A stretch of 41,461 nucleotides of DNA from Stellaceae bacterium (GTDB lineage: Bacteria > Pseudomonadota > Alphaproteobacteria > ATCC43930 > CGMCC-115725): assembly GCA_035507475.1 (NCBI GenBank), contig DATJOB010000420.1, positions 1 to 41,461 of the forward strand. The letters are read 5' to 3'. The notes beneath the pieces are model-generated. The model made no database searches, was not told the DNA's origin, and was given only the letters and a program-made list of their open reading frames with translations. Shown one piece after another: positions 3,116 to 34,287 of the stretch (position 1 is its first letter; each line of letters begins with the position of its first letter). A program made the position numbers and the translations under genes.

Positions 3116-5578
3116 TCAGCGCGGCGCGCCCTCGGCCGGGGCGGGGCCTAGCGCCGCCAGGTCGCGGTCGAGCAGGGCGACATCGTCCTGCCACTGGGTC
3201 CGCTCGGGATGGCGCGCGACGAGCGCGCTCATGATCGAGCGCGCCGCGGTGAAGTGCTCGCGCGCCTCCGCGGGTTTCGCGTCGCGCAGCGTGATCGCCA
3301 ACCGGGTATGCGCGATCGCGAGATCGTGCTGCGCCCCGACGCTCATCGGGTCGCGCGCCGCCAGCCGCTCGGCGATCGCCAGATCGGCGCGATACGCGTC
3401 GAGCGCCTCGGCGACATGGCCCTGCGCCGCGAGCGCCTTGCCCATCTTGTCGTAGGCGACCGAGAGGTCGCGCTGCCAGCCGGCGTTGTCGGGCTGCGCC
3501 TCGACCAGCCGCTGGCACACCGCCAGCACCTCGCGGTAGGAAGCGAGCGCGTCGTCTGTCGCACCGCCGCCGAGTTGCGCGTCGCCGACCTTCTCGGCCG
3601 CCACCGCGAGGTCGCGCTGCGCCGCGGCATTGGCGGGATCGGCGCGCGCGAGGCGGTCGAGGATCGACCAGGCGTCGCGATAGAGGCTGAGCGCCGCGGC
3701 GAAGTTCTTCTGCGCGACCAGCACGTCGCCGGTCTCGACCGACGAGACCGCAAGGTTGCGCTGCCAGTCGGCATTGCTCGGGTCGGTCTCCGCCAGCCGC
3801 TTGTCGATCTTCCGCGACTCGCCGAAGGAGTTGACCGCGTCGGGCAGATTGCCCTGGTCGAACTCGATCTCGCCGAGCTTGCCGTGTGCCACCGACAGCT
3901 CGCGCTGCCATAGGGTGTTCGTCGGGTCGGCCCGGGCGAGCCGCTCCCTGATCGCCAGGCTGCGGCGGTAGGAATCGAGCGCATCCGCGAGGTTGCCTTC
4001 GGCGGCGAGCGCCCCGCCGACCCGCTCGTGCGCGACCGAGAGATCGTGCTGCCACTCGGCGGAATCGGGGTCGGAGGCGGCAAGCTTCTCGCGGATCCCG
4101 AGGGAGTCGCGATAGGCGGCAAGCGCGGCCTGCAGCTCGCCCTGCGCCGCCTCGACGTCGCCGACCCGTTCCTCGAACACCGAGAGATCGCGCTGCGCGC
4201 CGGCGTTACCCGTGTCGGCGGCGGCCAGTTGCCGCGCCATCTCCAGCCCCTCGCGGTAGGTGGCAAGGGCGTCATCGGGCTTGCCCTGGCTGACCAGCGT
4301 GTCGCCGATCTTGTTGAGCGCGACCGAGACATCGCGCCGCCATCGCGGGTCGGCCGGATTGGCCGCGGCGAGCCGCTCGGCGATTTCTCGCTTCTGCCGG
4401 TAGGCCGCCAGTGCAGCGGCAAGATCGCCTTGCGCCATCGCGATGTCGCCGATCCGCTCCGCGGTGACGCCGACGCCGTATTGCCAGGCCGGGTCGGGGC
4501 GCAGCTTGACGAGCCGCTGGTAGGTCGCCGAGGCGTCGCCGAACACCGCGCGCGCCCCCGCGAGATCGCCCTTGGCGACCAGCACGTCGCCGACCTCGAC
4601 ATCGGCCGCGGCCATCGCCTCTTGGATTTCGGCATCGTTCCGCCGCTCCGCGGCGAGCCCGGCGAGCACCTGCTGCGCCGCGCGCGCATGCGACTCCTCG
4701 TTCGGGGTATCCCCGAGGATTTTGTAGTTGCGCGCGAACTGAATCAGCATCCACGCCTTGCGGTAGCGCAGGGCCGGGGTGGCGCGGCCGTATTTCGCCA
4801 TGTCGTCGAACAGGCCCTCGGCCTGCCCGAGCAGCGTCAGCGTCGCGCGGCGCGGCACGTTGTATTTCTCGGCCTGGGCGACGGCGCTGTCGACGATGCC
4901 GCTCGCGGTCTTGAGCGTGGCGTCGAGGAAGGCCTCGTTCGTCTTGAGCTGCACCCAGGCATAGATCGCGCTGCCGCTCGCCGCGACGGCCAGCACCGCG
5001 AGCGCCGCCATGATCGCGTGCCGCAGCCGCGCGCGACGCCGCCGGTCGCGCTCGGCGCGGCGGAACACCTCGTCGGGCGGCAGGCCGATCAGCCGCGCCA
5101 CCACCTTGGCGAGCGCGAGGTGCGCGCCGTCGCCGCTGTCGCGGATATCCGCCGCCAGCACGCCGTCCTCGCCGCGCAGCGCGGGCGGAAAGCACTCGCG
5201 CTCGCCGTGCCCCGGCTCGCCGTCGAGGATCACCGGGATCAGCGGCCGCTCCGGGTGGCGCGCGCGGAACAGCCGGACCTCCTCGTCGACCGGCGCGCTC
5301 TGCGCGGACGCCGGCGAAGCGAGCAGGATCAGCGCGTGCGCCGCGTCGAGCGCCGCCACGGTCTGCTCCGCCAGGCTGCCGCCGGCGGCGAAATCGTGGC
5401 GGTCGCGGAAGATCGGCCGCAGCTCCTTGGGAACCGGGCCCATGCCGGTGTCGCGGCCGACCAGGTCGCGGGCGATGCGGAAACCTTCGAGGCGCGCGTG
5501 CAGCCGCTTTGCCGCCGCGCTGTCGCGATGGCTGTATGACAGGAACGCGCGGTACTTGAGCGGCTGCGCCGTCGCCAT
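3116..5578 (-). CDS. TIR-domain protein with a single TM helix and a C-terminal TPR/Sel1-like helical repeat region
   Basis: Residues 8-165 are TIR-like: YRAFLSYSHRD, then ILLASPASAQSAPVDEEV, which aligns to the SxWCxxE catalytic-Glu helix. Residues 172-186 are Arg-rich (RRAERDRRRRARLRH). Residues 187-209 are hydrophobic (AIMAALAVLAVAASGSAIYAWV). Residues 314-793 are ten 48-aa helical repeats. The frame has high GC3 throughout. Confidence 0.85.
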   Translation of the reverse strand: MATAQPLKYRAFLSYSHRDSAAAKRLHARLEGFRIARDLVGRDTGMGPVPKELRPIFRDRHDFAAGGSLAEQTVAALDAAHALILLASPASAQSAPVDEEVRLFRARHPERPLIPVILDGEPGHGERECFPPALRGEDGVLAADIRDSGDGAHLALAKVVARLIGLPPDEVFRRAERDRRRRARLRHAIMAALAVLAVAASGSAIYAWVQLKTNEAFLDATLKTASGIVDSAVAQAEKYNVPRRATLTLLGQAEGLFDDMAKYGRATPALRYRKAWMLIQFARNYKILGDTPNEESHARAAQQVLAGLAAERRNDAEIQEAMAAADVEVGDVLVAKGDLAGARAVFGDASATYQRLVKLRPDPAWQYGVGVTAERIGDIAMAQGDLAAALAAYRQKREIAERLAAANPADPRWRRDVSVALNKIGDTLVSQGKPDDALATYREGLEMARQLAAADTGNAGAQRDLSVFEERVGDVEAAQGELQAALAAYRDSLGIREKLAASDPDSAEWQHDLSVAHERVGGALAAEGNLADALDSYRRSLAIRERLARADPTNTLWQRELSVAHGKLGEIEFDQGNLPDAVNSFGESRKIDKRLAETDPSNADWQRNLAVSSVETGDVLVAQKNFAAALSLYRDAWSILDRLARADPANAAAQRDLAVAAEKVGDAQLGGGATDDALASYREVLAVCQRLVEAQPDNAGWQRDLSVAYDKMGKALAAQGHVAEALDAYRADLAIAERLAARDPMSVGAQHDLAIAHTRLAITLRDAKPAEAREHFTAARSIMSALVARHPERTQWQDDVALLDRDLAALGPAPAEGAPR
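3200..4639 (-). repeat. Coding tandem array: 10 x 144 nt (48-aa units) inside the TIR gene
   Basis: Units begin at aa 314, 362, 410, 458, 506, 554, 602, 650, 698 and 746 with no indels. The consensus is approximately N-x-x-W-Q-R-D-L-S-V-x-x-x-K/R-V/I-G-D-x-x-x-x-Q-G-x-L-x-x-A-L-x-x-Y-R-x-x-L-x-I-x-E-R-L-A-x-x-D-P. Confidence 0.85.
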
Positions 5579-5698
5579 GGCTCGACCGCCGAAATCGGCG
5601 GTTGCAGCTTAACCCGGGCGGCGGCGGACCGGCAAACAGCGCCGCGGGCCGGCTTGACGTGGCGCCGCCGGACGCACCGCGCCGGTCCCGACCGGAGC

Positions 5699-6142
5699 CT
5701 ACTTCTTGGCGCGCGCCGCGCGGCGGCCGGTACCGCGGCCGAGCCCGATCTTCTTGGCGAATTCCGAGCGCTGCTGCGCATAGTTCGGCGCCACCATCGG
5801 ATAGTCGGGCGGCAGCCCCCATTTCGCCCGGTATTCGTCGGGCGACAGGTTGTAGGTCGAGCGCAGGTGGCGTTTCAGCATCTTCAGCTTCTTGCCGTCC
5901 TCGAGGCACACCAGGTATTCGGGCGTGATCGACTTGCGGACCGGCACCGCGGGCTTCAGCGCTTCCGGCGCGGCCTCGACCACCTGACCGTCGAGCGCCC
6001 GCAGCGAATTGTAGACCGCGTGAATAACGTCGCCGAGCTGACCGGTGGCCAAGGTATTATTGCTGACATAGGCCGCGACCACTTCGGTGGTCATGCGCAA
6101 CAATTCGTCGTCAGCCGATTTCGGCGCTCCCGTTTCTGCCAT
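5699..6142 (-). CDS. mucR: MucR/Ros-family transcriptional regulator
   Basis: Collinear with Agrobacterium Ros as recalled from memory: VAAYVSNN..., KPAVPVRKS, VCLEDGKKLKMLKRHL, YRAKWGLPPDYPMVAPNYAQQRSEFAKKIGLG. Confidence 0.9.
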   Translation of the reverse strand: MAETGAPKSADDELLRMTTEVVAAYVSNNTLATGQLGDVIHAVYNSLRALDGQVVEAAPEALKPAVPVRKSITPEYLVCLEDGKKLKMLKRHLRSTYNLSPDEYRAKWGLPPDYPMVAPNYAQQRSEFAKKIGLGRGTGRRAARAKK

Positions 6143-6180: not shown

Positions 6181-6209
6181 ATAATTGCAGCCGCTTTTTT
6201 TGGTGTCAA
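6181..6209 (-). promoter_or_regulatory. Sigma70-type promoter for mucR (TTGACA-N17-AATTAT)
   Basis: The minus strand reads TTGACA (6209-6204), a 17-nt spacer, then AATTAT (6186-6181). This is about 39 nt upstream of the mucR ATG and lies in the only AT-rich patch of the region. Confidence 0.5.
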
Positions 6210-6496
6210 CGAAAACTCCGAGAGATAATAGTAATCGTCGTCGCCAAGTTGTCGTGGCGACTTATCTTTAGCTGGAGACCTGGGCATTCCGCGGAAAATC
6301 GCCGAGTCCGATTCATGCCTGTGCTTTGCCGCCGAACCAATAATCGGGATGAAGCCGGCGCCCGGCGAGGCCCGACAGACCTCCGCCGGTGACGCGAGGT
6401 CTGGTAGCCGGCTGACATCGCCACCCGAGATATGGTAGGCTTCCGGCGTGAAACAGCGGCGGTCGGCGCCGCTGCGCCCCGCCTCTTGCCGCGATA

Positions 6497-7807
6497 GGTG
6501 AAACCCTGGCTGCCCCCTCCGTCTCCCCCCTCCCCGACGGGTTTTTCGCTGCCGGACTGGCTGCCGCCGATCCCGAGATCGCCGCCGCGATCGCGCAGGA
6601 GTTGCATCGCCAGCAGTCGCAGATCGAGCTGATCGCCAGCGAGAACATCGTGTCCCGCGCGGTGCTCGAGGCGCAGGGCTCGGTGCTGACCAACAAATAC
6701 GCCGAGGGCTATCCCGGCCGCCGCTATTACGGCGGCTGCGAGTTCGTCGACATCGCCGAGCGGCTGGCGATCGAGCGCGCCAGGCGGCTGTTCGGCTGCG
6801 GTTTCGCCAACGTCCAGCCGCATTCCGGCGCGCAGGCCAACCAGGGCGTGTTCCTCGCGCTGCTCTCGCCGGGCGACACGATCCTCGGCCTGTCGCTCGC
6901 CGCCGGCGGGCACCTGACGCATGGCGCGCCGCCCAACCTGTCGGGGAAGTGGTTCAAGGCGGTGCATTACGGCGTGCGCGCCGACGATGCGCGCATCGAT
7001 TTCGACGAGGTCGAGCGCCAGGCCGAGACGCAGCGCCCCAAGCTCGTCATCTGCGGCGGCAGCGCCTATCCGCGGATCATCGACTTCGCCCGCTTCCGTG
7101 CGATCGCCGACCGGGTCGGCGCCTATCTGATGGTCGACATGGCGCATTTCGCGGGGCTGGTCGCCGGCGGGGTGCATCCGAGCCCGCTGCCGCACGCCCA
7201 CGTCGTCACCACCACGACGCACAAGACGCTGCGAGGCCCGCGCGGCGGCATGATCCTCAGCGACGACGAGGCGATCGCGAAAAAGATCGACTCGGCGATG
7301 TTCCCGGGGCTGCAGGGCGGTCCGCTGATGCATGTGATCGCCGCCAAGGCGGTGGCGCTGGGCGGGGCGCTGCGGCCCGATTTCGCGGTCTACGCACGGG
7401 CGGTCGTCGACAATGCCAAGGCGCTTGCCGAGACGCTCGTGGCCGAGGGGCTCGCCATCGTCTCGGGCGGCACCGACACGCATTTGATGCTGGTCGACCT
7501 GCGGCCGCTCGACCTCACCGGGCGCGAGGCCGAGCAGGCGCTCGAACGCGCCGGGATGACCTGCAACAAGAACGGCATCCCGTTCGATCCCAAGCCGCCG
7601 ACCGTCACCTCCGGCATCCGCCTCGGCTCGCCGGCGGCGACGACGCGCGGCTTCGGCGTCGCCGAGTTCCGCCAGATCGGCGCGTGGATCGGCGAGGTGC
7701 TGCGCGGCCTGGCGCAGCACCCGGACGACAATGCCGGGATCGAGGGCCGGGTGCGCGGCGAGGTCGGCGCGCTCTGTGAGCGCTTTCCGGTGTATCCGCG
7801 GGCGTAG
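6497..7807 (+). CDS. glyA: Serine hydroxymethyltransferase
   Basis: Conserved SHMT sequence ([38 protein letters not shown]; [14 protein letters not shown]). The conserved N-terminal [17 protein letters not shown] lies upstream of the first ATG (6602). The start is therefore placed at GTG 6497, immediately after an in-frame TAG. Confidence 0.9.
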
Positions 7808-7822
7808 AAGGGGGAGGATAAG

Positions 7823-8284
7823 ATGCGCTGTCCGTTCTGCGGGACCGACGACACCCAGGTCAAGGATTCGCGCCCGACCGACGACCGCGGCGCGATCCGG
7901 CGCCGGCGCTTCTGCCCGAACTGCGCGGCGCGCTTCACCACCTTCGAGCGGGTGCAGCTGCGCGACCTGACCGTGGTCAAGAAGAACGGCCAGCGCGAGC
8001 CGTTCGACCGCGAGAAGCTGTCGCGCTCGATCTACGTCGCCTTGCGCAAGCGCCCGTACGAGACCGAGCGCGTCGAGCGGATGATCAACTCGATGGTCCG
8101 CCAGCTCGAAAGCTCGGGCGAGACCGACATCCCGAGCGACATGATCGGCGAGCATGTCATGGAGGCGCTCGCCCAGCTCGACCAGGTCGCCTATATCCGC
8201 TTCGCCTCGGTCTACCGCAATTTCCGCGAAGCCAAGGATTTTGGCGACTTCGTCGGCCGCATCGCCGCCGACGGCGATTGCTGA
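7823..8284 (+). CDS. nrdR: Transcriptional repressor NrdR
   Basis: MRCPFCG...[16 protein letters not shown] zinc ribbon plus an ATP-cone. The glyA-nrdR-ribD order is canonical. Confidence 0.93.
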
Positions 8285-8301
8285 GACAATATTTTTGGCC
8301 A

Positions 8302-8319
8302 TCCCGGCGAAGGCCGGGA
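8302..8319. repeat. REP-type hairpin TCCCGGC-GAAG-GCCGGGA after nrdR
   Basis: 7-bp GC stem read directly. This is the motif whose shadow translation gives the familiar PAFAGM peptide of alphaproteobacterial REP elements. A second hairpin, GCCCCGGC-CCTT-GCCGGGGC, lies at 8355-8374. Confidence 0.5.
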
Positions 8320-8383
8320 CCCATGCTTCAACCCGTGGAGCAGCGGATAAATGGGCCCCGGCCCTTGCCGGGGCGGGCTTCAA

Positions 8384-9490
8384 ATGGCTGAGGTTGCCGA
8401 CCTCACGCTGATGCGCGCGGCGCTGGCGCTGGCGCGGCGCGGGCTCGGTCGGGTCTGGCCGAACCCGGCGGTCGGCTGCGTCATCGTCAATGACGGGCGC
8501 GTCGTCGGCCGCGGCTGGACCCAGCCGGGCGGGCGTCCGCACGCCGAGACCGAGGCACTGGCGCGCGCCGGCGCCGCGGCGCGGGGCGCCACCTGCTACG
8601 TGTCGCTCGAACCGTGCAGCCACCACGGCAAGACCCCGCCCTGCGCCGAGGCGCTGATCGCCGCCGGCATCGCGCGCGCGGTGGTCGCGGTCGAGGACCC
8701 CGATCCGCGCGTCTCCGGCCGCGGCCTTGCTCGCCTGCGCGCCGCCGGGATCGCGGTCGATAGCGGGCTTTGCGCCGGCGAGGCGGAGGAGCTCAACGCC
8801 GGCTTCTTCCGCCGCATCGCCGAGGGCCGGCCGCTCGTCACGCTGAAGCTCGCGAGCTCGCTCGACGGCCGAATCGCGACCGCCGCCGGCGAAAGCCGCT
8901 GGATCACCGGCGCGGCGGCGCGGGGACGCGCGCATCTGCTGCGCGCGACGCACGACGCGGTGCTGATCGGCACCGGCACCGCGCTCGCCGACGATCCGCA
9001 GTTGACCTGCCGGCTGCCGGGGCTGGCGGACCGCTCGCCGGCGCGCGTCGTCATCGATCGCCGGCTGCGCCTACCGCCGAGCTTGCGTCTCTTCGCCGAG
9101 GCGAAGCGCACACCGACCTGGCTCCTGACCTGCGCCCCGCCCGGCGCGCCCGAGCTGGCCGCCCTGGCGCGGCGCGGCGTCAGGATCGTTCGCGTCGAAG
9201 CCGATGCGGCGGGCGGGATCGATCTCGGCGACGCGCTCCGCCGCCTGGCCGGCGAGGGATTGACCCGGCTCCTCGTCGAGGGAGGCGGGGTGCTCGCCGC
9301 GGCGCTGCTGCGCGCCGGGCTCGTCGACCGGCTCGTCTGGATGCGGGCGCCGCTGGCGCTCGGCGGCGACGGCGTGCCGGCGGTCGCCGCGCTCGGCCTC
9401 GGCGCGCTTGCCGCAGCGCCGCGCTTTACCTTGCTGGCGAGCGAAACGGTCGGCGGCGACCTGATCGAGACCTACGCGCGCGACGAATAG
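8384..9490 (+). CDS. ribD: Bifunctional riboflavin biosynthesis protein RibD (pyrimidine deaminase / uracil reductase)
   Basis: Deaminase motifs HAETEAL and PCSHHGKTPPC, followed by the reductase domain. Start chosen at ATG 8384 (MAEVADLTLMRAALALARRG) because the upstream ATG at 8351 lies inside a hairpin. The start is uncertain by 33 nt. Confidence 0.88.
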   Translation: MAEVADLTLMRAALALARRGLGRVWPNPAVGCVIVNDGRVVGRGWTQPGGRPHAETEALARAGAAARGATCYVSLEPCSHHGKTPPCAEALIAAGIARAVVAVEDPDPRVSGRGLARLRAAGIAVDSGLCAGEAEELNAGFFRRIAEGRPLVTLKLASSLDGRIATAAGESRWITGAAARGRAHLLRATHDAVLIGTGTALADDPQLTCRLPGLADRSPARVVIDRRLRLPPSLRLFAEAKRTPTWLLTCAPPGAPELAALARRGVRIVRVEADAAGGIDLGDALRRLAGEGLTRLLVEGGGVLAAALLRAGLVDRLVWMRAPLALGGDGVPAVAALGLGALAAAPRFTLLASETVGGDLIETYARDE

Positions 9491-11475: not shown

Positions 11476-12453
11476 ATGGCCCGCGGGCTCGGCGAGTTCG
11501 GCCGCATCCGGCAATTCTTCGCCCCGCTCGCCGGGCCGGGCGCGCTCGGTCTCGCCGACGACGCCGCGCTCGTCGAGTGCCCGCCCGGCCATCGCCTGGT
11601 GCTGACCGTCGACCAGCTGGTCGAATCCGTCCATTTCCTGCCCGACGACCCGCCCGAGCTGGTCGCCCGCAAGCTGCTGCGCCGCAACCTCTCCGACCTT
11701 GCGGCGATGGCGGCCGAGCCGCTCGCCTACCTGGTCGCGAGCGCGTTGCCGACGACGCGCGACGACGATTGGGTGCGGCGCTTCGCCGAGGGGCTCGGGG
11801 AAGACCAGCGGCATTTCGGGGTCAGCCTGCTCGGCGGCGACTCGACCTCGACGCCGGGCCCCGCCGCATTCTCGCTGACCGCGATCGGCCGCGTCGTCGA
11901 GGGGCGCGAGCTGCGGCGCAGCGGCGCGCGACCGGGGGATCGCGTCTGGGTCAGCGGCACGGTCGGCGACGCGTTTCTCGGCCTCGCACTGCTGCGCGGC
12001 GCGCACCCTGGTCTCGCCGCCGGGCATCGCGCCGCGCTGATCGCGCGCTACCGGCTGCCCGAGCCGCGCTGCACGCTCGGCCTGCGGCTCGCCGGGGTCG
12101 CGCATGCGGCGATCGACGTCTCGGACGGGCTCGTCGCCGATCTCGGCCATCTCTGCGAGGCGTCCGGCGTCGGCGCCGAAATCGCGCTGCCGCGCGTGCC
12201 GCTGTCGCCCGCCGCGCGCGAGCTGACCCTCGCCGACGCGCGGCTTTGCGCCCGGCTTGCCACCGCCGGTGACGATTACGAGCTGCTCTTCGCCGCGCCG
12301 CCGGAAGCCGCCGGCAGGATCGCCGCGCTCGCCGCCGAGCTCGCCTTGCCGCTCACCGAGATCGGCGCGATCGAGGCCGGCGCGGGTGTGCGGCTGGTGG
12401 ACGCCGAGGGCAGGCAGGTCGCCCTCGACAATGCCGGGTGGCGCCACTTCTGA
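11476..12453 (+). CDS. thiL: Thiamine-monophosphate kinase
   Basis: MARGLGEFGRIRQFF...DDAA...HF N-terminus, with AIR-synthase-like N and C domains (DLSDGL-type motif DVSDGLVADL). Confidence 0.88.
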   Translation: MARGLGEFGRIRQFFAPLAGPGALGLADDAALVECPPGHRLVLTVDQLVESVHFLPDDPPELVARKLLRRNLSDLAAMAAEPLAYLVASALPTTRDDDWVRRFAEGLGEDQRHFGVSLLGGDSTSTPGPAAFSLTAIGRVVEGRELRRSGARPGDRVWVSGTVGDAFLGLALLRGAHPGLAAGHRAALIARYRLPEPRCTLGLRLAGVAHAAIDVSDGLVADLGHLCEASGVGAEIALPRVPLSPAARELTLADARLCARLATAGDDYELLFAAPPEAAGRIAALAAELALPLTEIGAIEAGAGVRLVDAEGRQVALDNAGWRHF

Positions 12454-13649
12454 TGCAGCAGGCGCGCAAGACGGTGCTGCTGCTCGCCGGCTGCCAGGCG
12501 CTGGCGATGACCAGCATGAGCGTGTTGGCGACGACCTCGGCGATCATCGGCAACATGCTGGCGCTCAACAAGGCGCTGTCGACGCTGCCGGTGGCGCTGC
12601 AGCAGACCGGGATGATGTGCGCCACGATCCCGGCAGCGCTGTTGATGGGCCGGATCGGCCGGCGCGGCGGGTTCTGGACCGGCGCGGCGATCGGCGTCAG
12701 CGGCGGCATCGTCGCCGGGCTCGCGGTCTGGGCGGCGTCGTTCCCGCTCTTCTGCCTCGGCACGCTGTTGATCGGCAGCTCCAACGGCTTCGCCCAGCAA
12801 TACCGTTTCGCCGCCGCCGAGATCGCCGACGAAGGGTTCCGCGCGCGGGCGATCTCGCTGGTGCTCGCGGGCGGCGTCTTCTCCGGCGTCTTCGGACCGG
12901 AGACCGCCAAATGGTCGCGCGACCTTTTCGCGCCGGTGCTGTTCGCCGGCTGCTTTGCGATGGTCGTCGCGCTGCAGCTCGGCGCCGCGGCGCTGCTCCT
13001 CTTCATCCGCCTGCCGCCGGCGCCGCTGCGCGGCGCCTGGCGCAACGCGGGGCGTCCGCTGCTGCGCATCGTGCGCCAGAAGCGGTTCGCCGTCGCGCTG
13101 CTCTGCGGGATGATCGGCAACGGCGTGATGGCGCTGGTGATGACGGCGACGCCGATCGCGATGATCGGCTGCGGTTTCCACTTTACCGACGCCGCCTTCG
13201 TCATCCAGTGGCACATCCTCGGCATGTACGCACCGAGCTTCGTCACCGGCCAGCTGATCACGCGATTCGGCGTGACCCGGATCCTCTTCGCCGGCGCGAT
13301 GCTGCTGCTCGCCTGCTGCGGCATCAACCTCGCCGGCATCGCCGAGGCCAATTTCTGGGCCGCGAACGCGCTGCTCGGCGTCGGCTGGAACTTCCTCTTC
13401 GTCGGGGCGACGACGCTGCTCACCCGCACCTATGCGCCGGAGGAGCGAGCGAAGGTCCAGGCCCTCAACGACTTCATGATCTTCGGCACGGCGACGTTCG
13501 CGGCGTTCTCGTCGGGCGCGCTGCTCGCCGGGTTCGGCTGGACGACCGTGCAGCTGGCGGTGATGCCGGCGGTCGCGCTCGTGGCGGCGGCGATCCTCTG
13601 GCTGCATCTCGGCGCGCCGCAGGGCGAAGCCCGCTATGCGGCGGATTGA
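12453..13649 (+). CDS. MFS transporter
   Basis: About 12 hydrophobic segments and the MFS loop motif GRIGRRGG. The ATG overlaps the thiL TGA (TGATG). An alternative GTG start exists at 12438. Confidence 0.8.
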   Translation: MQQARKTVLLLAGCQALAMTSMSVLATTSAIIGNMLALNKALSTLPVALQQTGMMCATIPAALLMGRIGRRGGFWTGAAIGVSGGIVAGLAVWAASFPLFCLGTLLIGSSNGFAQQYRFAAAEIADEGFRARAISLVLAGGVFSGVFGPETAKWSRDLFAPVLFAGCFAMVVALQLGAAALLLFIRLPPAPLRGAWRNAGRPLLRIVRQKRFAVALLCGMIGNGVMALVMTATPIAMIGCGFHFTDAAFVIQWHILGMYAPSFVTGQLITRFGVTRILFAGAMLLLACCGINLAGIAEANFWAANALLGVGWNFLFVGATTLLTRTYAPEERAKVQALNDFMIFGTATFAAFSSGALLAGFGWTTVQLAVMPAVALVAAAILWLHLGAPQGEARYAAD

Positions 13650-13778
13650 GCCGCAAAGTTGCGGGCGCCCCGCGCTTCTGGCATGTTCCGCGCGACCTGA
13701 CCTGGCTCGCCGCGCCGGCGCGGTGCCGAAGGCAGGTTTTTTGTTCCGCGCAGTGCCTTCCGGGGGGAAACAACGACG

Positions 13779-15875
13779 ATGTCTGCGGCCTATATCCTGG
13801 TGATCGCGTGCGGCGTGCTTGCCTTGCTGTACGGGTTCGTCACCAGCCGGCAAGTGCTGGCCGCCAACGCCGGGACGGCGCGGATGCAGGAGATATCCAG
13901 CGCCGTGCAGGTCGGGGCGAGCGCCTATCTGAACCGCCAGTACCGCGCCATCGCGGTGGTCGGGATCGTCATCCTGATCATCCTCGCGGTGACGCTCGGC
14001 TGGCGCGTCGGGCTCGGCTATCTGATCGGCGCAGTGCTGTCGGGCGCCGCCGGCTATATCGGGATGAACGTCTCGGTGCGTTCCAACGTGCGCACCGCCC
14101 AGGCGGCGCGCAGCGGGCTCGCGGAAGGGCTCGGCATCGCCTTCAAGGCCGGCGCGGTGACCGGGCTCCTCGTCGTCGGGCTCGGCATCCTCGGCGTCGG
14201 GATCTATTACTTCTTCCTGCGCGCGACCGTGACCGGCGCCGATCTGCGCCCGGTGCTCGAAGCGATGGTCGGGCTCGGCTTCGGCGCCTCTCTGATCTCG
14301 ATCTTCGCCCGGCTCGGCGGCGGCATCTTCACCAAGGGCGCCGATGTCGGCGCCGACATCGTCGGCAAGGTCGAGGCCGGCATCCCCGAGGACGACCCGC
14401 GCAATCCCGCGGTGATCGCCGACAATGTCGGCGACAATGTCGGCGACTGCGCCGGCATGGCGGCCGACCTGTTCGAGACCTATGCGGTCACCATCGTCGC
14501 GACGATGCTGCTCGCCAACATCTTCTTCCAGCCGCCGCTGCGCGACGCGATGATGCTCCTGCCGCTGCTGATCGGCGGCGTGTGCATCGTCGCCTCGGTG
14601 ATCGGCACGTTCTTCGTCCGCCTCGGCCCCGACCAGGGCATCATGCGCGCGCTCTACAAGGGGCTGATCGCGACCGGCATCCTGTCGATCCTGGCGATCG
14701 CCGCGGTCGTCGGCTGGCTGACCGGGTTCCGCCAGGACCTGGCGATGGTCTCGGGGACGATCACCGGCTGCGACATCCTGACCTGCGCCGTCGTCGGGCT
14801 CGCGGTGACCGGGCTCATCGTCTGGATCACCGAGTTCTACACCTCGACCGAGTACCGCCCGGTGCGCAGCATCGCGCAAAGCTCGACGACCGGCGACGGC
14901 ACCAACGTCATCCAGGGCCTCGCCGTCTCGATGGAGGCGACGGCGCTGCCGGTCATCGTGATCTGCGTCGGCATCGTCGTCTCCTACCTGATGGCCGGGC
15001 TCTTCGGCATCGCGGTCGCAGCCACGACAATGCTCGCGCTCGCCGGCATGGTGGTGGCGCTCGACGCCTACGGCCCCGTCACCGACAATGCCGGCGGCAT
15101 CGCCGAGATGGCTGATCTCCCCTCGGAGGTGCGCAAGACGACCGACGCGCTCGACGCGGTCGGCAACACCACCAAGGCGGTCACCAAGGGCTATGCGATC
15201 GGCTCGGCCGGGCTCGCCTCGCTGGTGCTGTTCGCCGCCTATACCGAGGATCTGAAGCATTATTTCCCCGGCCTCGACGTGCGCTTCGCGCTGCAGGACC
15301 CCTATGTCGTGATCGGGCTCTTCATCGGCGGGCTCCTGCCCTACCTGTTCGGGGCGCTGGGCATGACCGCGGTCGGCCGCGCGGCGGGCGGCATCGTCAA
15401 CGAGGTGCGCCGCCAGTTTCGCGAGATCCCGGGCATCATGCAGGGCACCGCCAAGCCCGATTACGGCCGCGCCGTCGACATGCTGACCCGGGCGGCGATC
15501 CGCGAGATGATCGTGCCCTCGCTGCTGCCGGTACTGGCGCCGATCGTGCTCTATATCGTGATCCGGCTGGTCGCCGGGCAGGCGGCGGCGTTCGGCGCGC
15601 TGGGGGCGATGCTGCTCGGCACGATCGTCACCGGCCTCTTCGTCGCGATCTCGATGACCTCGGGCGGGGGCGCCTGGGACAACGCCAAGAAATACATCGA
15701 GGAGGGCCACCACGGCGGCAAGGGCTCAGACGCGCACAAGGCCGCGGTGACCGGCGACACGGTCGGCGACCCCTACAAGGACACCGCCGGGCCCGCGGTC
15801 AACCCGATGATCAAGATCACCAACATCGTCGCGCTGCTGCTGCTGGCGGTGCTCGGCACCTGGGCCGGCCATTGA
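13779..15875 (+). CDS. hppA: Membrane-bound H+-translocating pyrophosphatase (K+-independent type)
   Basis: 698 aa with the signature motifs [21 protein letters not shown] and [16 protein letters not shown]. The Lys in GNTTKA is the known marker of K+-independent enzymes. Confidence 0.95.
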
Positions 15876-29195: not shown

Positions 29196-30218
29196 TCAGG
29201 GTCCGCTACTGGTCGCCCGGTCGATCACCTCCCCGGGGTCGAAGGCGTTGAACGCGTCGACCAGGGCATTCGAATAGTAGATCGCCGGCGGCCGCCGGCT
29301 GGCGATCGCTCCGGTCGACAGCAGGAATTCCTGCCAGGCTGCGGCTTCGCGCTCGGTTATCGCGCCCCAACGCGGGTCGGGCGCGCCCTCGATCCGCTGG
29401 CTCGCCAGCCGCACCTCGAGCGCCGCCAGCTCGCGGCGAAACGCGTGCGCCGGGTCCTCGCCCGGCGCCGGACCGGCGTCGGGATGATGCTGCCACAGGA
29501 ACCGCACCGCCGCCGCCGGGTTGGTCAGCGCGAACAGCGTCGCCTTGGCGACCGCGCGTCCAAAGGCAGCGAACACCGCAGGACGCTCGGCGAGCGCATC
29601 CTCCATCGCCTCGAGGCATGACGACGGGGTCAAGCCGTCGATCTCGGGCGCCGGCAGGCTCCTCAGCGGCAGCCCCTCGCCGGCCATCAAGCCGGAGAGC
29701 ACGTCGAGTTGCCAGACCGCCGCGACCTCGCCGCTGCGGATCATCGCCGCCATCTTGGGCGCATCGAGCGGACTGCCGGCGAGCGGCTTGAAGACGACGT
29801 CGCGCTCGGGGTCGACCCCCGCCCCGACCAGCGCCGCGCGGGCGAAGGCGCGCAGCTCGGGATCGTCGTAATGCAACCCGATCACCTTGCCGCGCAGCTC
29901 GCCGAGGCTGCGGATCGGGCTCGTTTCGGGCACCGAGAAGCTCCGGTTCTGCCGCCGCACGAACGCGTAGAAGGGCCGGTAGGGAGCCCCGCGATCGTAG
30001 GCGAGGAACGAGAAGACGATGTTGACGAAGCTGAGGTCGCCGCGCCCGGCGATGACGCCTTCGACCGCGTCCTTGGGCGAGCCGGCGATCTCGACCGTGA
30101 CGTCGAGGCCTTCGGCGGCGGTGTAGCCGAGGTCCTTGGCGAGCCAGATCGGCGCGAAGTTGGCGGTGACGTGGGGGACCGAGGCGAGAACGGTCAGCCG
30201 GCCGAGCGAGGCGGCCAT
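29196..30218 (-). CDS. NMT1/THI5-like (NitT/TauT-type substrate-binding fold) protein without a signal peptide
   Basis: The periplasmic-binding-protein type 2 fold begins at about residue 8 (LTVLASVPHVTANFAPIWLAKDLGYTAAEGLDVTVE). That leaves no room for a leader peptide. The ATG overlaps the hyuB TGA (TGATG). Confidence 0.75.
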   Translation of the reverse strand: MAASLGRLTVLASVPHVTANFAPIWLAKDLGYTAAEGLDVTVEIAGSPKDAVEGVIAGRGDLSFVNIVFSFLAYDRGAPYRPFYAFVRRQNRSFSVPETSPIRSLGELRGKVIGLHYDDPELRAFARAALVGAGVDPERDVVFKPLAGSPLDAPKMAAMIRSGEVAAVWQLDVLSGLMAGEGLPLRSLPAPEIDGLTPSSCLEAMEDALAERPAVFAAFGRAVAKATLFALTNPAAAVRFLWQHHPDAGPAPGEDPAHAFRRELAALEVRLASQRIEGAPDPRWGAITEREAAAWQEFLLSTGAIASRRPPAIYYSNALVDAFNAFDPGEVIDRATSSGP

Positions 30219-32215
30219 CACGCAGCCTCCATGCTGACGCGCCCGGTGGCGAGCGCGGCGTCGATCACCTCGCGCAGCGCCGTTTCGAGCGGGTGGCCGG
30301 TCAGCGCGGCGAGCCCCCGGTCCTTTTCGACCGCCCGGTAGACCTGGTCGCGCAGGTATTGGCGGACGGCGGCCGGGCGCTCGACCAGGAGCCGCGACGC
30401 AACGTCCTGCAGCGCGGGCGGGAGCATCTCCTCATGGGCGGTGCGCTCCGGCCCGAAGACGAACTCCGCCGGCGGGCTGTTTCTCGCAAGGTCGCGCCGC
30501 AGCGCAGCCGTCGCGGCTTCGTCGCAATTCCCGTCGACGACGACCACGCCGTATTGACTGCGGGCTTCATCGATGCCGACGAGCCCATCGGCGACATCCT
30601 TGACGACGCGCTCCGGCGCGCGCTGCAGCGGATCGCCGTAACCGGCGCCGCCCGGCGAGGTGATGCTCACGACCTGGCCGGGCGCGAGCTGCAGGATGTC
30701 GATCTTGCCGATGCCGCGCTCGTGCGGCGTGCCGGGATCGATGACGGTGTTGCCGAGCGTGCCCGGCGCGCCGCCCTTGCGCCCGTAGGGCCGCAATTTG
30801 TAGCGATCCATGCCGCGCGCGGTGACGATCGCGTTGGCCGTCAGGCACTTGAACTCGAACACCACCCCGGCGCCGCCGCGATGGGCGCCGGGCGCGACAT
30901 TGTCGGCCAGCATGTAATGGTGGACGAACACCGGCGCTTCCAGCTCGATGCTCTCGGTCGGGACATTGCGCAGCGACCCGGTCGAGAAATTGACCCCGTC
31001 GATGCCGTCCTTGGTCGGGCGCCCGCCGCAGCCGCCTTGGACGGGCTGCAGCACGTTCACCTTGTAGGCGCCGCTCTTCGGATCGAGATGCGAGAACAAG
31101 ACGATCGACGCGCCGCCGGCGCCCGCGGTCGGGATCGATTCCGGCACCGCCTGGGCCAGCGCGCCGAGCACCGCGTCGGCGACGCGGTAGCCGGTCGCGT
31201 GACGCACGCCCGACGGGGCGATCGGCGTCGGGTTGAGCACGCTGCCCTCGGGGATGCGCACCGAGACCGAGCGCAGGATGCCGCGGTTGAGCGGCAAGCC
31301 GCGATCCGAGGTGCGCAGGAAGTTGACGATGCCGAGCACGATCCACTGATTGGTGCGCCCGAAGGTCGGCAGATTGAGCGCGGCCCGCACCTGCGGGTCG
31401 GTGCCGTCGAAATCGAGCACCACGTCGCTGCCCGAGACGATGACCTTGACCTTGAGGCGCAGGTAGTAGGGTGAGATGTAGTCGATCTCGACGTAGTCGG
31501 CGAATTCGTAGGCGCCGTCGGGCACCCGTGCCAGCACCTCGCGGGCGCGCGCCTCGCCGTAGTCGAGCAGCGCCCGGATCCCCTCGGCGACGACCGCCGC
31601 CCCGTGCCGCGCGACCACCTGGCCGACACGCCGCTCGCAGATCGTCAGCGCCGCGATGAGCGCCTTCATGTCGCCCCAGTTCTGCTCGGGGATCCGACAG
31701 TTGGCGAGGATCAGCCCGAGCAGCTCCTGGTTGAGCTCGCCGCGGCTGAACAGCTTGGTCGGCGGGATGCAGAGCCCCTCCTGGAAGCGGTCGAAGGCGG
31801 TCGGCGCAATGCTGCCGGGAACCAGCCCGCCGACGTCCGACGAATGGACGAAGCACCACGCGAAGCAGAGCAGCCTGCCTTCGTAGAAGAGCGGCCGGAA
31901 CAGCATGATATCGGGCAGATGCGTACACATGCCCTTGGTCGAGCGCGGGTCGTTGGTGACGATCACGTCGCCGGGCTCGTAATGCTCGATGCAGCGGATC
32001 GCCGCACCCATGTGCATCCCGAGCATGTTGGTCACGCCGATCTCGCGAGGGTAGCAGAAGATCTCGCCGTCGGGCGTCACCAGCGCCGCGTCGAAATCCC
32101 AGGTCTCCTTGACGAAGACGGTGAACGCGGCGCGGTGAATGACGTAGCCCATCTCCTCGACAATCCCGCTGAAGTGATTGCCGAGGATCTCGAGCAATAT
32201 CTTGTCAATAGACAT
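30218..32215 (-). CDS. hyuB: Hydantoinase B / oxoprolinase family protein
   Basis: The sequence MSIDKILLEILGNHFSGIVEEMGYVIHRAAFTVFVKETWDFDAALV is typical of Hydantoinase_B. The protein is 665 aa. Confidence 0.9.
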   Translation of the reverse strand: MSIDKILLEILGNHFSGIVEEMGYVIHRAAFTVFVKETWDFDAALVTPDGEIFCYPREIGVTNMLGMHMGAAIRCIEHYEPGDVIVTNDPRSTKGMCTHLPDIMLFRPLFYEGRLLCFAWCFVHSSDVGGLVPGSIAPTAFDRFQEGLCIPPTKLFSRGELNQELLGLILANCRIPEQNWGDMKALIAALTICERRVGQVVARHGAAVVAEGIRALLDYGEARAREVLARVPDGAYEFADYVEIDYISPYYLRLKVKVIVSGSDVVLDFDGTDPQVRAALNLPTFGRTNQWIVLGIVNFLRTSDRGLPLNRGILRSVSVRIPEGSVLNPTPIAPSGVRHATGYRVADAVLGALAQAVPESIPTAGAGGASIVLFSHLDPKSGAYKVNVLQPVQGGCGGRPTKDGIDGVNFSTGSLRNVPTESIELEAPVFVHHYMLADNVAPGAHRGGAGVVFEFKCLTANAIVTARGMDRYKLRPYGRKGGAPGTLGNTVIDPGTPHERGIGKIDILQLAPGQVVSITSPGGAGYGDPLQRAPERVVKDVADGLVGIDEARSQYGVVVVDGNCDEAATAALRRDLARNSPPAEFVFGPERTAHEEMLPPALQDVASRLLVERPAAVRQYLRDQVYRAVEKDRGLAALTGHPLETALREVIDAALATGRVSMEAA

Positions 32216-34277
32216 GGTCGCCCTTGTCAGTTGCGGTGCCGATGAGGTTGCCGAACGCGTCGACCGAAACGCGCCAGCCGGGAGTGACGAAGACGGTCGT
32301 GTCGAACTGTTCGACGATCGCCGGGCCGTCGAACGCGAACCCGGGGGCGAGCTCGTCGCGCTGATAGATGCCGGTCGGCCACTGGCGACCGCCGATGTAC
32401 ACGTCGCGGCGCGCGATTTCCGGCGCGGCAATCTCGCGGCCGGAAGCGAGCCTTTCGAGCGGCCGCTTCGGGCTGATGGCGATCGCGGTGACGCGCAGGT
32501 CGAGGATTTCGAGATCGGCGTTCTCGTCGCCGTAGCCGTAGACCTGCACGTACATCTGGTGAAACCGGCTGCGCAGCGCGGAGCCCGTTTCGTCCGCCAC
32601 ATCCGCCTCGCTGAGCGGGACGGTCAGCTCGAAGGACTGGCCGAGATAGCGCATGTCGGCGGCCCAATCGAGCCGCCGCTCGGGAAAGTCGAGCCCTTGC
32701 GCATCGATCCACGCCTCGCCCGCGGCGGTCAGGCGTCGCAGCGAGGCGGCGAGCACCCGCATCAAGTCGGCCGCGCCGACCTGGCCGAGCACGCGATGGA
32801 CGGTCTCGACCATGTCCTTGCGCAAGTCCGCGACGAGCGAGCCGGCGGCGCAGAGCACGCCGGGATGGCGCGGCACCAGCACGCGCTGGATGCCGACATC
32901 GCGCGCCAGCAGGAAGGCGTGGCTCGGGCCGGCGCCGCCAAAGGCGAACAGCGTGTAATCCTCGTAGCCGACGCCGCGGCGGGCGAGCAGCGGCACGAGG
33001 GTCGCATACATCTGCGACGTCGCCACCCGCAGGATCGCCTCGGCGGTTGCCTGGGGATCGAGGTCGAGGGGCCGGCCGAGCCGCGTCAGTGCCGCCTCCG
33101 CCAGCCCGCGGTCGAGCGCCATCCGGCCGCCCAGGAAATTGACCGGATCGATGATGCCGAGCGCGACATAGGCGTCGGTCACGGTCGCCTCGCGGCCGCC
33201 CTGACCGTAGCAGGCCGGACCCGGCGCGGCCCCCGCGCTTTGCGGCCCCACCTTGAGGACGCCGGTCGAGTCGGTCCAGGCGATCGAGCCGCCGCCCGCG
33301 CCGATCGAGGTGACGTGCACGGCCGGCATGATCACCGGGAAGTCGCCGACATGGCTCTCGGTCGAGTAGTGCGGCGTCTTCTCGATCACGGCGACATCGG
33401 CGCTGGTGCCGCCCATGTCGAAGGTGATCAACCGCTCATGGCCGCTCGCCGCGCCGACAAAGGCAGCGCCGATGACGCCGGCGGCGGGTCCCGAGAGCAG
33501 CGTCTCGACCGGCCGTTCGCCGGCTTCGCCCGCGGGCATGATGCCGCCGTTCGACTTCGTCGACAGCACGCGCGCGCCGAGGCCGAGCTCGCCCAGCCCT
33601 TCCTCGAGGCGTGAGAAATACCGCTCCATCCGCCGGCCGACATAGGCGTTCATCACGGCGACGAGCGCGCGCTCGTATTCGCGCATCTGCGGCCAGATCT
33701 CGGAGGCGAGCGAGACGTGGAGGTCGGGCGCCTCGGCCGCCAGTATCTCCCGCGCGCGGCGCTCGTTGGCGCCGTTGCGGTAGCTGTGCAGGAAGCACAC
33801 CGCGACCGCCTCGACCCCCGCCTCGACCATGCTTCGGCCGGCCCGGCGCACCGCCTCCTCGTCGAGCGGCTTCAGCACGGTGCCGTCGGCGAGGCAACGC
33901 TCGGGGATCTCGAAGACGCGCGAGCGCGGCACCAGCGGGACCGGCAGCTCGGTGAAGAAGTTGAAGACGTCGGGGATCCGGTGCCGGCCGATATTGAGAA
34001 TGTCGCGAAAGCCGGCGGTGACGAGCAGGGCCGAGACGTGACCGCGGCGCTGAATGATCGTGTTCACCGCGAGCGTCGTGCCGTGAATGAAGTAGCGGAT
34101 ATGCTCCGGCCGCACCGCATGCTCGGCGAGCAATTGGCGGATGCCGTCGAAGATCGCCTCTTCGGGCTTCGTCGCCACCGATTGCGTCTTCAGCACCCGG
34201 ACGCGACCGGTCGCCTCGTCGAGCAGCGAGAAGTCGGTGAAGGTGCCGCCGATGTCGATCCCCAAACGATATGCCAT
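32205..34277 (-). CDS. hyuA: Hydantoinase A / oxoprolinase family protein (ATP-hydrolysing subunit)
   Basis: MAYRLGIDIGGTFTDFSLLD is an ASKHA-fold N-terminus, and a second phosphate motif FDMGGTSADV is present. The protein is 690 aa. It overlaps hyuB by 11 nt. Confidence 0.9.
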   Translation of the reverse strand: MAYRLGIDIGGTFTDFSLLDEATGRVRVLKTQSVATKPEEAIFDGIRQLLAEHAVRPEHIRYFIHGTTLAVNTIIQRRGHVSALLVTAGFRDILNIGRHRIPDVFNFFTELPVPLVPRSRVFEIPERCLADGTVLKPLDEEAVRRAGRSMVEAGVEAVAVCFLHSYRNGANERRAREILAAEAPDLHVSLASEIWPQMREYERALVAVMNAYVGRRMERYFSRLEEGLGELGLGARVLSTKSNGGIMPAGEAGERPVETLLSGPAAGVIGAAFVGAASGHERLITFDMGGTSADVAVIEKTPHYSTESHVGDFPVIMPAVHVTSIGAGGGSIAWTDSTGVLKVGPQSAGAAPGPACYGQGGREATVTDAYVALGIIDPVNFLGGRMALDRGLAEAALTRLGRPLDLDPQATAEAILRVATSQMYATLVPLLARRGVGYEDYTLFAFGGAGPSHAFLLARDVGIQRVLVPRHPGVLCAAGSLVADLRKDMVETVHRVLGQVGAADLMRVLAASLRRLTAAGEAWIDAQGLDFPERRLDWAADMRYLGQSFELTVPLSEADVADETGSALRSRFHQMYVQVYGYGDENADLEILDLRVTAIAISPKRPLERLASGREIAAPEIARRDVYIGGRQWPTGIYQRDELAPGFAFDGPAIVEQFDTTVFVTPGWRVSVDAFGNLIGTATDKGDHVY

Positions 34278-34287
34278 TAAAGCCTCA

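Follow-up and report, generated by a model that had tools for sequence, protein, structure and literature searches.

The TIR-TPR gene

We describe a gene for an 820-residue protein in which an N-terminal TIR domain is followed by a single predicted transmembrane (TM) helix and a long array of tetratricopeptide repeats (TPRs). It lies in a contig of 41,461 nucleotides (DATJOB010000420.1, assembly GCA_035507475.1) from a Stellaceae bacterium (Alphaproteobacteria), and the contig as a whole is referred to below as the window. An earlier note on this DNA had singled out the gene as encoding a membrane-anchored TIR protein laid out like an inverted Toll-like receptor. The single open reading frame (ORF) that it reported is a real gene on the minus strand (Table 1), with an ATG start and a G+C content (GC) of 0.77/0.50/0.91 at the three codon positions, which is the coding signature of a genome of ~70% GC. 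A check of the translation found all strings quoted in that note at their residue numbers. The gene is host-like in composition, as had been remarked, with a GC of 0.715-0.736 across its region in a window that ranges from 0.64 to 0.745.

Table 1. Features of the TIR-TPR gene and of its upstream neighbour, in window coordinates (aa, amino acid residues).
Feature	Position	Strand	Basis
Complete TIR-TM-TPR gene, 820 aa	3116..5578	minus	ATG 5578-5576, stop 3118-3116; ORF list and translation
TIR domain, aa 8-165, predicted cytoplasmic	5084..5557	minus	Pfam TIR_2, AlphaFold2, Foldseek, family profile
Glu100 codon, putative catalytic Glu, helix alpha-C	5279..5281	minus	Alignment and conservation; model helix 95-107
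Polybasic stretch RRAERDRRRRARLRH, aa 173-187, predicted cytoplasmic face/stop-transfer signal	5018..5062	minus	Charge count, conservation
Single predicted TM helix AIMAALAVLAVAASGSAIYAWVQ, aa 188-210	4949..5017	minus	Kyte-Doolittle mean 2.0 over 19 residues
Juxtamembrane helical region, aa 211-357, degenerate TPR-like hairpins, predicted periplasmic	4508..4948	minus	Model helices 215-359
Nine 48-residue TPR repeats, aa 358-789	3212..4507	minus	Repeat hidden Markov model, Pfam, Foldseek
C-terminal capping helix and short disordered tail, aa 790-820, and stop	3116..3211	minus	Model helix 794-809; predicted local distance difference test (pLDDT) <50 at aa 818-820
Ros/MucR-family regulator gene	5699-6142	minus	120 bp upstream of the TIR-TPR gene, same strand

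Very long ORFs, of up to 1145 aa, are also found at 6206-8953, 12276-15713 and 4272-5909 (minus strand) and at 4028-5539 (plus strand). They overlap glyA/nrdR, the major facilitator superfamily (MFS)/H+-PPase genes and the TIR gene itself, either on the opposite strand or in another frame. The overlapping long ORFs that were checked do not have the third-position GC (GC3) signature of the TIR-TPR gene; such ORFs arise from the 70% GC composition and are not genes.

The TIR domain and its conserved glutamate

The assignment of residues 8-165 to a TIR domain, made in the earlier note by inspection, is borne out by both sequence and fold. Pfam family TIR_2 (PF13676) matches aa 12-127 with 42.8 bits (E = 8.6e-11; gathering score 28). 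An AlphaFold2 (AF2) model of aa 1-185, computed from 44 aligned sequences, has the TIR-type beta-alpha pattern (pLDDT 83; predicted template modelling score 0.81). A Foldseek search of PDB with such a model was the fold check set in advance, and it recovered the TIR fold: the top 50 matches comprised 48 TIR domains and two DNPH1 structures, which have a related fold, with target-normalised TM-scores up to 0.77. Among the TIR matches were SPARTA TIR-APAZ, TLR1, MAL, flax L6, Brucella TcpB, SARM1, RPP1, ThsB and MyD88; the TIR domain of TLR10 was also among the fold or sequence matches, together with those of TLR1 and TLR2. The TIR domain as a single sequence had no match among PDB sequences and a profile was required: the profile of the TIR region of the family matched L6, TLR2 and TIR-STING at the sequence level (HMMER). 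The sequence match and the flavodoxin-like fold both place the domain in the TIR superfamily.

The FLSYSHRD motif occupies aa 12-19 and the segment ILLASPASAQSAPVDEEV aa 84-101, including Glu100, which the earlier note had aligned with the Glu of the S-x-W-C-x-x-E helix. Alignments with TLR2 and TIR-STING agree with this, pairing Glu100 with the Glu of their S-E-W-C/S-K-Y/F-E segments. In the L6 alignment a three-residue gap introduced by HMMER leaves the pairing ambiguous; by our own reading, a gapless register would pair Glu100 with the catalytic Glu of L6. The position is occupied by Glu in 118 of 121 homologues and by Gln in the other three, and it is invariant in all 41 aligned family members with non-TPR C-termini. 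Four positions before it, at position 96, where an aromatic residue is usual, the window protein has Pro and most homologues have Tyr or Ala. Near-invariant residues of the family further include Y9, R10, A11, F12, S14, Y15, H17, D19, the LRPIFRDR motif, S88, V97, E99, D144, R146, D150, G151, K158 and the RRAERxRRR motif beyond the domain. The conserved Glu of the TIR fold is the catalytic residue of NAD+-cleaving TIR domains. With this residue conserved in helix alpha-C, the TIR domain is probably an NAD-cleaving enzyme.

The predicted membrane helix and the repeat array

The extremely basic stretch and the 23-residue hydrophobic helix that had been described after the TIR domain both lie where they had been placed. 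The 15 residues on the N-terminal flank of the helix (aa 172-186) include nine Lys or Arg and two Asp or Glu, and the C-terminal flank has two Lys or Arg. In a hydropathy scan, the region of aa 187-211 is the sole segment outside the TIR core that reaches the Kyte-Doolittle threshold, and in the full-length AF2 model one unbroken helix (168-211) spans both the basic stretch and the TM segment. A hydrophobic segment at aa ~190-220 is found in nearly all of the 120 homologues listed. The RRAERxRRR motif is nearly invariant, the TM helix's C-terminal half (AVAAxGSAVYAW) is strongly conserved and the juxtamembrane region has many near-invariant columns among homologues. Such conservation of the second half of the helix and of the region that follows would exceed the need of a passive anchor.

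The ~610 residues of all-helical repeats noted previously can now be named as TPRs. The full-length AF2 model (pLDDT 86) has 24 or more antiparallel helices between aa 215 and 809, with low confidence at aa 197-212, and Pfam TPR families (TPR_12, 99.9 bits; TPR_10; TPR_2) cover aa ~340-800. A hidden Markov model of the repeat unit resolves nine units in the window protein and 3-10 in homologues. The nine are in register, 30-60% identical to one another, and conform to the consensus ADPxNAxWQRDLSVSYxKVGDVLxAQGNLxEALxSYRxSLAIxERLAK. Foldseek with the full-length model returned only generic TPR superhelices (of the OGT, SPY and LGN types), which are uninformative as to function. The per-position entropy of 960 repeat units describes a conserved scaffold with scattered variable positions and no clear hypervariable face of the NLR style; both between species and from one repeat to the next, the surface residues WQRD, YR and ER are highly conserved.

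A large family with exchangeable C-termini

The gene had been presented as a singular oddity. Instead, it belongs to a very large, unstudied family that is visible in databases. A search over 5.8 billion proteins, in which only candidates were scored, gave 981 matches at E<=1e-5, with the top 120 at 40-62% identity (BLASTP local). Nearly all of these homologues combine PF13676 with TPR families, and the best name attached to them is 'tetratricopeptide repeat protein'. A scan of GTDB, with one genome per species and two family motifs, returned at least 600 matches, and at least 548 loci in species-representative genomes were confirmed by tblastn. Most are from Alphaproteobacteria (Methyloceanibacter, Hyphomicrobiaceae, Xanthobacteraceae, Rhodomicrobium, Defluviicoccus, Rhizorhabdus) and some from Beta- and Gammaproteobacteria. 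Several paralogues per genome are found, at least ten genomes appearing two or three times among the top 80 loci. With aa 1-215 as query, an exhaustive HMMER search collected 760 clusters, defined at 50% identity, when the threshold was E<=1e-30, and 6,777 when it was 1e-10. The 150 best matches of this search range from 160 to 995 aa, and nearly all have the module at the N-terminus, the exceptions being a few fragments and longer gene calls.

The part of the protein that follows the membrane helix is far less constant. Several genomic matches cover only aa 1-170/240, with the same module of TIR domain, basic stretch and TM helix at 50-60% identity. Among 146 representatives, 90 have a TPR array as C-terminus, nine a WD40 beta-propeller (e.g. 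P0229; also the isolate Massilia sp. IC2-477, locus L071) and six an FGE-sulfatase domain (PF03781, 185 bits; loci L049, L057, L059, L060 and L065), and other members have short regions after the TM helix without a Pfam match. The FGE-sulfatase domain has the C-type-lectin fold and is a ligand-binding scaffold of the targets of diversity-generating retroelements (Kaur et al. 2020, PMC7159879). The family is thus a constant TIR-basic-TM chassis with swapped C-terminal domains. NCBIfam has no model for it and gave only weak, partial TPR and FxsC-TIR matches far below cut-off, and literature searches found nothing specific on a TIR-TM-TPR/WD40/FGE family.

Some of the closest homologues, at 29-54% identity, come from genomes binned as Actinomycetota (L011, L014), Eremiobacterota (L079) and Burkholderiaceae (L001). 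Homologues binned so far from the Alphaproteobacteria could reflect mis-binning or horizontal transfer.

Predicted topology

According to the positive-inside rule, the basic flank of a membrane helix is cytoplasmic. On this ground the earlier note had predicted a cytoplasmic TIR domain, and as a prediction this is strengthened by the family: in 240 members with a clear TM helix, the 15 residues before it carry on average 7.1 Lys and Arg, versus 2.0 after it, and the N-terminal flank is the more basic in 236 of the 240. Because of this bias, the TIR domain is predicted to be inside and the repeats outside; because there is no N-terminal signal peptide and a single TM helix, the C-terminus would be on the opposite side, i.e. 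in the periplasm. Cys makes up 0.98% of the TIR part but 0.17% of the region after the helix, where 103 of 193 members have none, 50 have one and 20 have two. FGE-sulfatase-type C-termini at the same position have 6-8 Cys. The scarcity of Cys and the Cys-rich FGE domains may be taken as softer support for a periplasmic location. Cys parity was considered as a test for the periplasm and rejected as uninformative, despite the Cys-poor C-terminal part; the window protein has one Cys, an odd number, in this part.

Alternatively, the hydrophobic helix could be peripheral or oligomerising and the protein wholly cytoplasmic, a relative of TIR-II or of TIR-STAND (Avs-like) proteins that lacks the NTPase and detects phage proteins there. 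Arrays of the TPR_10/12 and WD40 types usually serve STAND NTPases as cytoplasmic sensors, and the odd Cys number and the low AF2 confidence at aa 197-212 would agree with such a location, as would the defence of E. coli by single TIR+TPR proteins (PMC11350192). We nevertheless consider a cytoplasmic protein improbable, given a 23-residue helix with a Kyte-Doolittle mean of 2.0 that is conserved in position family-wide, a near-invariant Arg cluster on one side of it only, with the charge bias just described, a Cys-depleted C-terminal region, and Cys-rich FGE-sulfatase domains in the same position.

Genomic context

On one side, the TIR-TPR gene is flanked by genes for a 3-hydroxyisobutyryl-CoA hydrolase-like protein, 3-hydroxyisobutyrate dehydrogenase (HIBDH), a MarR regulator and a BLH-phosphatase-like protein; on the other by the Ros/MucR gene and then glyA, nrdR, ribD, ribE, ribH and thiL. 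Genes for an H+-PPase, plsX, kdpA and hydantoinases are found further along, and the window is core chromosome. None of the neighbours in the window is a ThsA/SIR2/SLOG, STAND NTPase, cyclase or Argonaute gene. The lack of adjacent partners had been noted from this locus and it extends to the family. In tblastn searches of nine flanking window proteins against 80 homologous loci there were zero matches. The survey of conserved neighbours that had been proposed beforehand, a de novo clustering of 971 neighbour ORFs, yielded a largest cluster present in nine of the 80 loci. Among 148 proteins flanking 37 loci, Pfam and PADLOC found no family more than four times and no enrichment of defence genes. 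A linked, conserved partner gene is rejected by these three scans. The TIR-basic-TM module is found in four of 72,556 plasmid records, all of them non-mobilizable megaplasmids, and phage records gave no match to it. Because of the lack of recurring neighbours and this near-absence from plasmids and phages, we conclude that the TIR-TPR gene is a stand-alone unit, outside defence islands and not mobile.

These scans also bear on the possibility that the protein is the signal-making half of a dispersed two-component system, in which a messenger of the cyclic ADP-ribose (cADPR) or ADP-ribose (ADPR) type activates an effector encoded elsewhere, by a Thoeris-like logic without linkage. Many family members have ThsB_TIR Pfam matches, TIR domains of Thoeris produce signals (10.64898/2025.12.03.692087), and TIR is the sole effector domain in the chain. 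Defence signalling pairs are, however, normally tightly linked. At the 37 loci scanned, the gene has no linked effector, whether ThsA-like, SLOG, Macro, SIR2 or of another kind, nor does any cluster of neighbours exceed nine of the 80 loci. We assign this possibility a low probability.

The closest neighbour is mucR. A sigma-70-like promoter site precedes it (6209-6181), and nothing resembling a terminator is found between mucR and the TIR-TPR gene on that strand; co-transcription or regulation of the TIR-TPR gene by MucR is possible. The adjacency recurs in a syntenic orthologue on a metagenomic contig (L083) and not beside other homologues, and for this reason mucR was rejected as a partner.

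Evolution of the locus

On contig L083, the corresponding position is occupied by an orthologue of 61% identity, between mucR and the block of BLH-phosphatase, MarR, HIBDH and ECH genes. Ten flanking orthologues are 72-97% identical between the window and L083. Within the TIR-TPR protein, identity is 79% in the TIR domain, 78% in the basic stretch and TM helix, 72% in the juxtamembrane region and 42% in the TPR array, which also differs in repeat count. With 42% against the 72-97% of the flanking genes, the presumed sensor is by far the fastest-evolving segment of the locus, as judged from the percent identity of one orthologue pair in which the repeats complicate alignment.

It is very improbable that the gene is catalytically dead or decaying and without current function. 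The Pro in place of the usual aromatic residue at position 96 and repeats that are more diverged than the family consensus could be taken as signs of decay, but the frame of 820 codons is intact with a GC3 of 0.91, all near-invariant residues of the family are present, and a related genome has kept the orthologue at this locus.

A more serious alternative is that of a non-immune envelope signalling or housekeeping protein, with the predicted layout unchanged, that would monitor or organise a normal constituent of the envelope, and in which the TIR domain is a protein-interaction scaffold or makes a low-level NAD-derived regulatory signal and does not kill the cell. Such a role would suit a location in the core chromosome (glyA, nrdR, rib genes, thiL, plsX, H+-PPase) with synteny kept in a related genome, virtually no plasmid or phage copies, no enrichment of defence genes nearby, several paralogues per genome and strongly conserved TPR repeat surfaces. 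It accounts less well for a catalytic Glu that is almost invariant, for a TPR array whose divergence far outpaces that of every flanking gene and whose number of repeats changes, and for C-termini swapped among ligand-binding folds, including the FGE/lectin fold of diversity-generating systems. Because of these last three features the family bears hallmarks of conflict or recognition proteins, and we regard a housekeeping role as rather unlikely.

Two further observations concern the related loci. In L083 (6880-7000), the gene call P0017 begins within the TIR domain, at LVGRD, and the frame continues upstream through AEPLRYRAFLSYSHRD. No ATG, GTG or TTG lies between the preceding stop and the LVGRD motif, which suggests that the start is non-canonical, that the sequence contains an error or that this copy is damaged at its N-terminus. 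An acyl-CoA dehydrogenase gene is located directly 3' of the TIR-TPR gene in L083 (9258-10445) and in L084 and L085 (8275-9516), two settings that otherwise differ, and is absent from the window; the adjacency is probably coincidence or lineage synteny.

Comparison with known TIR systems and receptors

The protein was compared with the described TIR systems. It differs from Thoeris in that no SIR2/SLOG, Macro-TM or other ThsA-class effector is adjacent, either among the neighbours in the window or among the 148 flanking proteins at 37 loci, and from CBASS, Pycsar and Pucsar in that no cyclase is near the gene. PADLOC gave a weak generic TPR match and a SAVED-TIR match (E = 0.003) that is limited to the TIR domain. 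For SPARTA, Pfam detects no APAZ domain, no pAgo gene is adjacent and the structural match is limited to the TIR part. Proteins of the STAND/NLR type (Avs; the TIR-NB-ARC-TPR/LRR proteins of plants, where LRR denotes leucine-rich repeats) likewise have an N-terminal TIR domain, a C-terminal TPR_10/12 or WD40 sensor and activation of the TIR domain by oligomerisation; unlike them, the window protein has no P-loop NTPase detectable by Pfam between TIR and TPRs, and the TM helix takes its place. Secreted TIR proteins such as Brucella BtpA/TcpB are small and soluble with a C-terminal TIR domain, whereas the present protein has 820 aa, an N-terminal TIR domain, a TM helix and TPRs, so that the likeness to TcpB is at the level of the fold only.

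The closest described system is TIR-II of E. coli, a single TIR+TPR antiphage protein whose defence depends on conserved NADase residues of its TIR domain; among TIR systems it is reportedly the most widespread, and ~30% of its relatives carry an ATPase, which makes them Avs-like (Nat Commun 2024; PMC11350192). TIR-II and the window protein share a TIR domain and a TPR array in one polypeptide without a conserved partner gene. In the text consulted, no TM helix between TIR and TPR is described for TIR-II; the window protein has one and has no NTPase, and the two are set apart in this way by description and not by sequence (PMC11350192). E. coli is also protected by further single-gene TIR systems, which likewise depend on residues of the TIR active site (PMC11350192), and SpbK is a stand-alone TIR NADase (PMC12847820). 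These single-gene proteins resemble the arrangement proposed here in combining sensing and a TIR effector in one gene, with abortive infection via NAD+ cleavage. They differ in being soluble and cytoplasmic, without a TM helix or a large repeat ectodomain, and in sensing intracellular phage proteins. The conserved TM helix and the predicted periplasmic sensor would thus separate the window protein from TIR-II.

Toll-like and IL-1 receptors have a layout like the one predicted, i.e. single-pass proteins with a solenoid outside, a TIR domain inside and activation by ligand-induced oligomerisation. The order of LRR ectodomain, TM helix and C-terminal TIR domain in Toll-like receptors is reversed here, where the TIR domain is N-terminal, and the ectodomain is made of TPRs in place of LRR or Ig domains. 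Also unlike in Toll-like receptors, no adaptor TIR proteins are encoded near the window gene, and the bacterial TIR domain is probably enzymatic. The likeness is one of convergent architecture, not orthology. A bacterial precedent for the outer half is DdvA of Myxococcus xanthus, a single-pass transmembrane anti-sigma factor with a periplasmic TPR-CHAT part seen by cryo-EM, which controls phage defence (PMC11506125). It shares with the predicted window protein the combination of a single-pass inner-membrane sensor and a periplasmic TPR array, and shows that large TPR domains function as periplasmic sensors. DdvA differs in having a CHAT domain, a cytoplasmic anti-sigma zinc domain that frees an ECF sigma factor, and linkage to its regulon.

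PDB entries 9m0n and 9umd, an 824-aa 'Tetratricopeptide repeat protein' and thus close in length to the window protein, could be a structural precedent for TIR+TPR proteins. Their aa 30-112 weakly match the family TIR profile (E = 0.02); the full-length family profile gave no match to them at E<=1e-3, and a literature search for the two entries found nothing specific.

Proposed mechanism and its significance

The active sites of TIR NADases form across TIR-TIR interfaces only on self-association, as in SARM1, plant TIRs, AbTir, ThsB, SPARTA and SpbK. We propose that the protein is a single-pass sensor-effector of the inner membrane, in which binding outside the cytoplasm clusters a TIR NADase inside, and we consider this about evenly balanced between right and wrong. 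The TPR solenoid would bind a ligand that is periplasmic or borne by the envelope; candidates are a phage or competitor component that crosses the envelope or a product of envelope damage. The ligand would shift the oligomeric state of the solenoid, and the conserved TM and juxtamembrane helix would relay the change such that the cytoplasmic TIR domains are brought together and cleave NAD+. The output may be NAD+ depletion, by which growth would be arrested or infection aborted, or production of an ADPR-derived signal that an unlinked receiver reads; depletion would be the simplest output because no receiver is linked. In its logic, such a receptor and effector in one chain would be like a Toll-like receptor with the domain order reversed. 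A more far-reaching version is that the family comprises genuine prokaryotic transmembrane pattern-recognition receptors, in which a swapped TPR, WD40 or FGE ectodomain detects phage entry, competitor attack or envelope damage and clusters the TIR NADase. This we put forward tentatively, as possible but short of an even chance.

Several observations weigh against a clustered NADase with an immune role. A conserved Glu does not suffice for activity: TLR2 shares the Glu of the motif, yet is known as a scaffold and is not known to be an NADase. Position 96 is Pro and not aromatic. No PADLOC model recognises the window protein. The core housekeeping location, the near-absence from mobile elements and the lack of defence-island enrichment are atypical of antiphage systems. 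The conserved repeat surfaces are easier to reconcile with a ligand that is conserved or self than with a hypervariable, non-self ligand. Finally, by analogy with the use of TPR_10/12 and WD40 arrays in STAND proteins, a periplasmic site is somewhat unexpected.

To our knowledge, the bacterial TIR systems described so far either detect infection within the cell or respond to a nucleotide signal in the cytoplasm. A TIR domain wired through the membrane, if the proposed mechanism is true, would constitute a new input layer, envelope sensing, for bacterial immunity or stress signalling. It would also offer a tractable bacterial model for the activation of TIR domains by ectodomain clustering and bear on the origin of the layout of Toll-like receptors. 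Should the family consist of pattern-recognition receptors, it would provide the first functional counterpart of Toll-like receptors in bacteria, able to act ahead of cytoplasmic infection cues or in their absence, and Alphaproteobacteria would have a large, chromosomally inherited and paralogue-rich repertoire of them. If, instead, the protein is a housekeeping protein of the envelope, it would provide the first non-conflict role for a bacterial TIR domain of the catalytic type. The appeal of the family for experiments lies in its hundreds of 50%-identity clusters, three or more types of ectodomain and a presumed sensor that is the fastest part to change.

Other genes in the window

The ORFs for hydantoinase B (30218-32602, minus strand) and hydantoinase A/oxoprolinase (32205-34640, minus strand) overlap by ~400 nt. 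Because Pfam matches are found only from aa 133 of the first and aa 125 of the second onwards, translation of both genes probably begins well downstream of the earliest start codon available.

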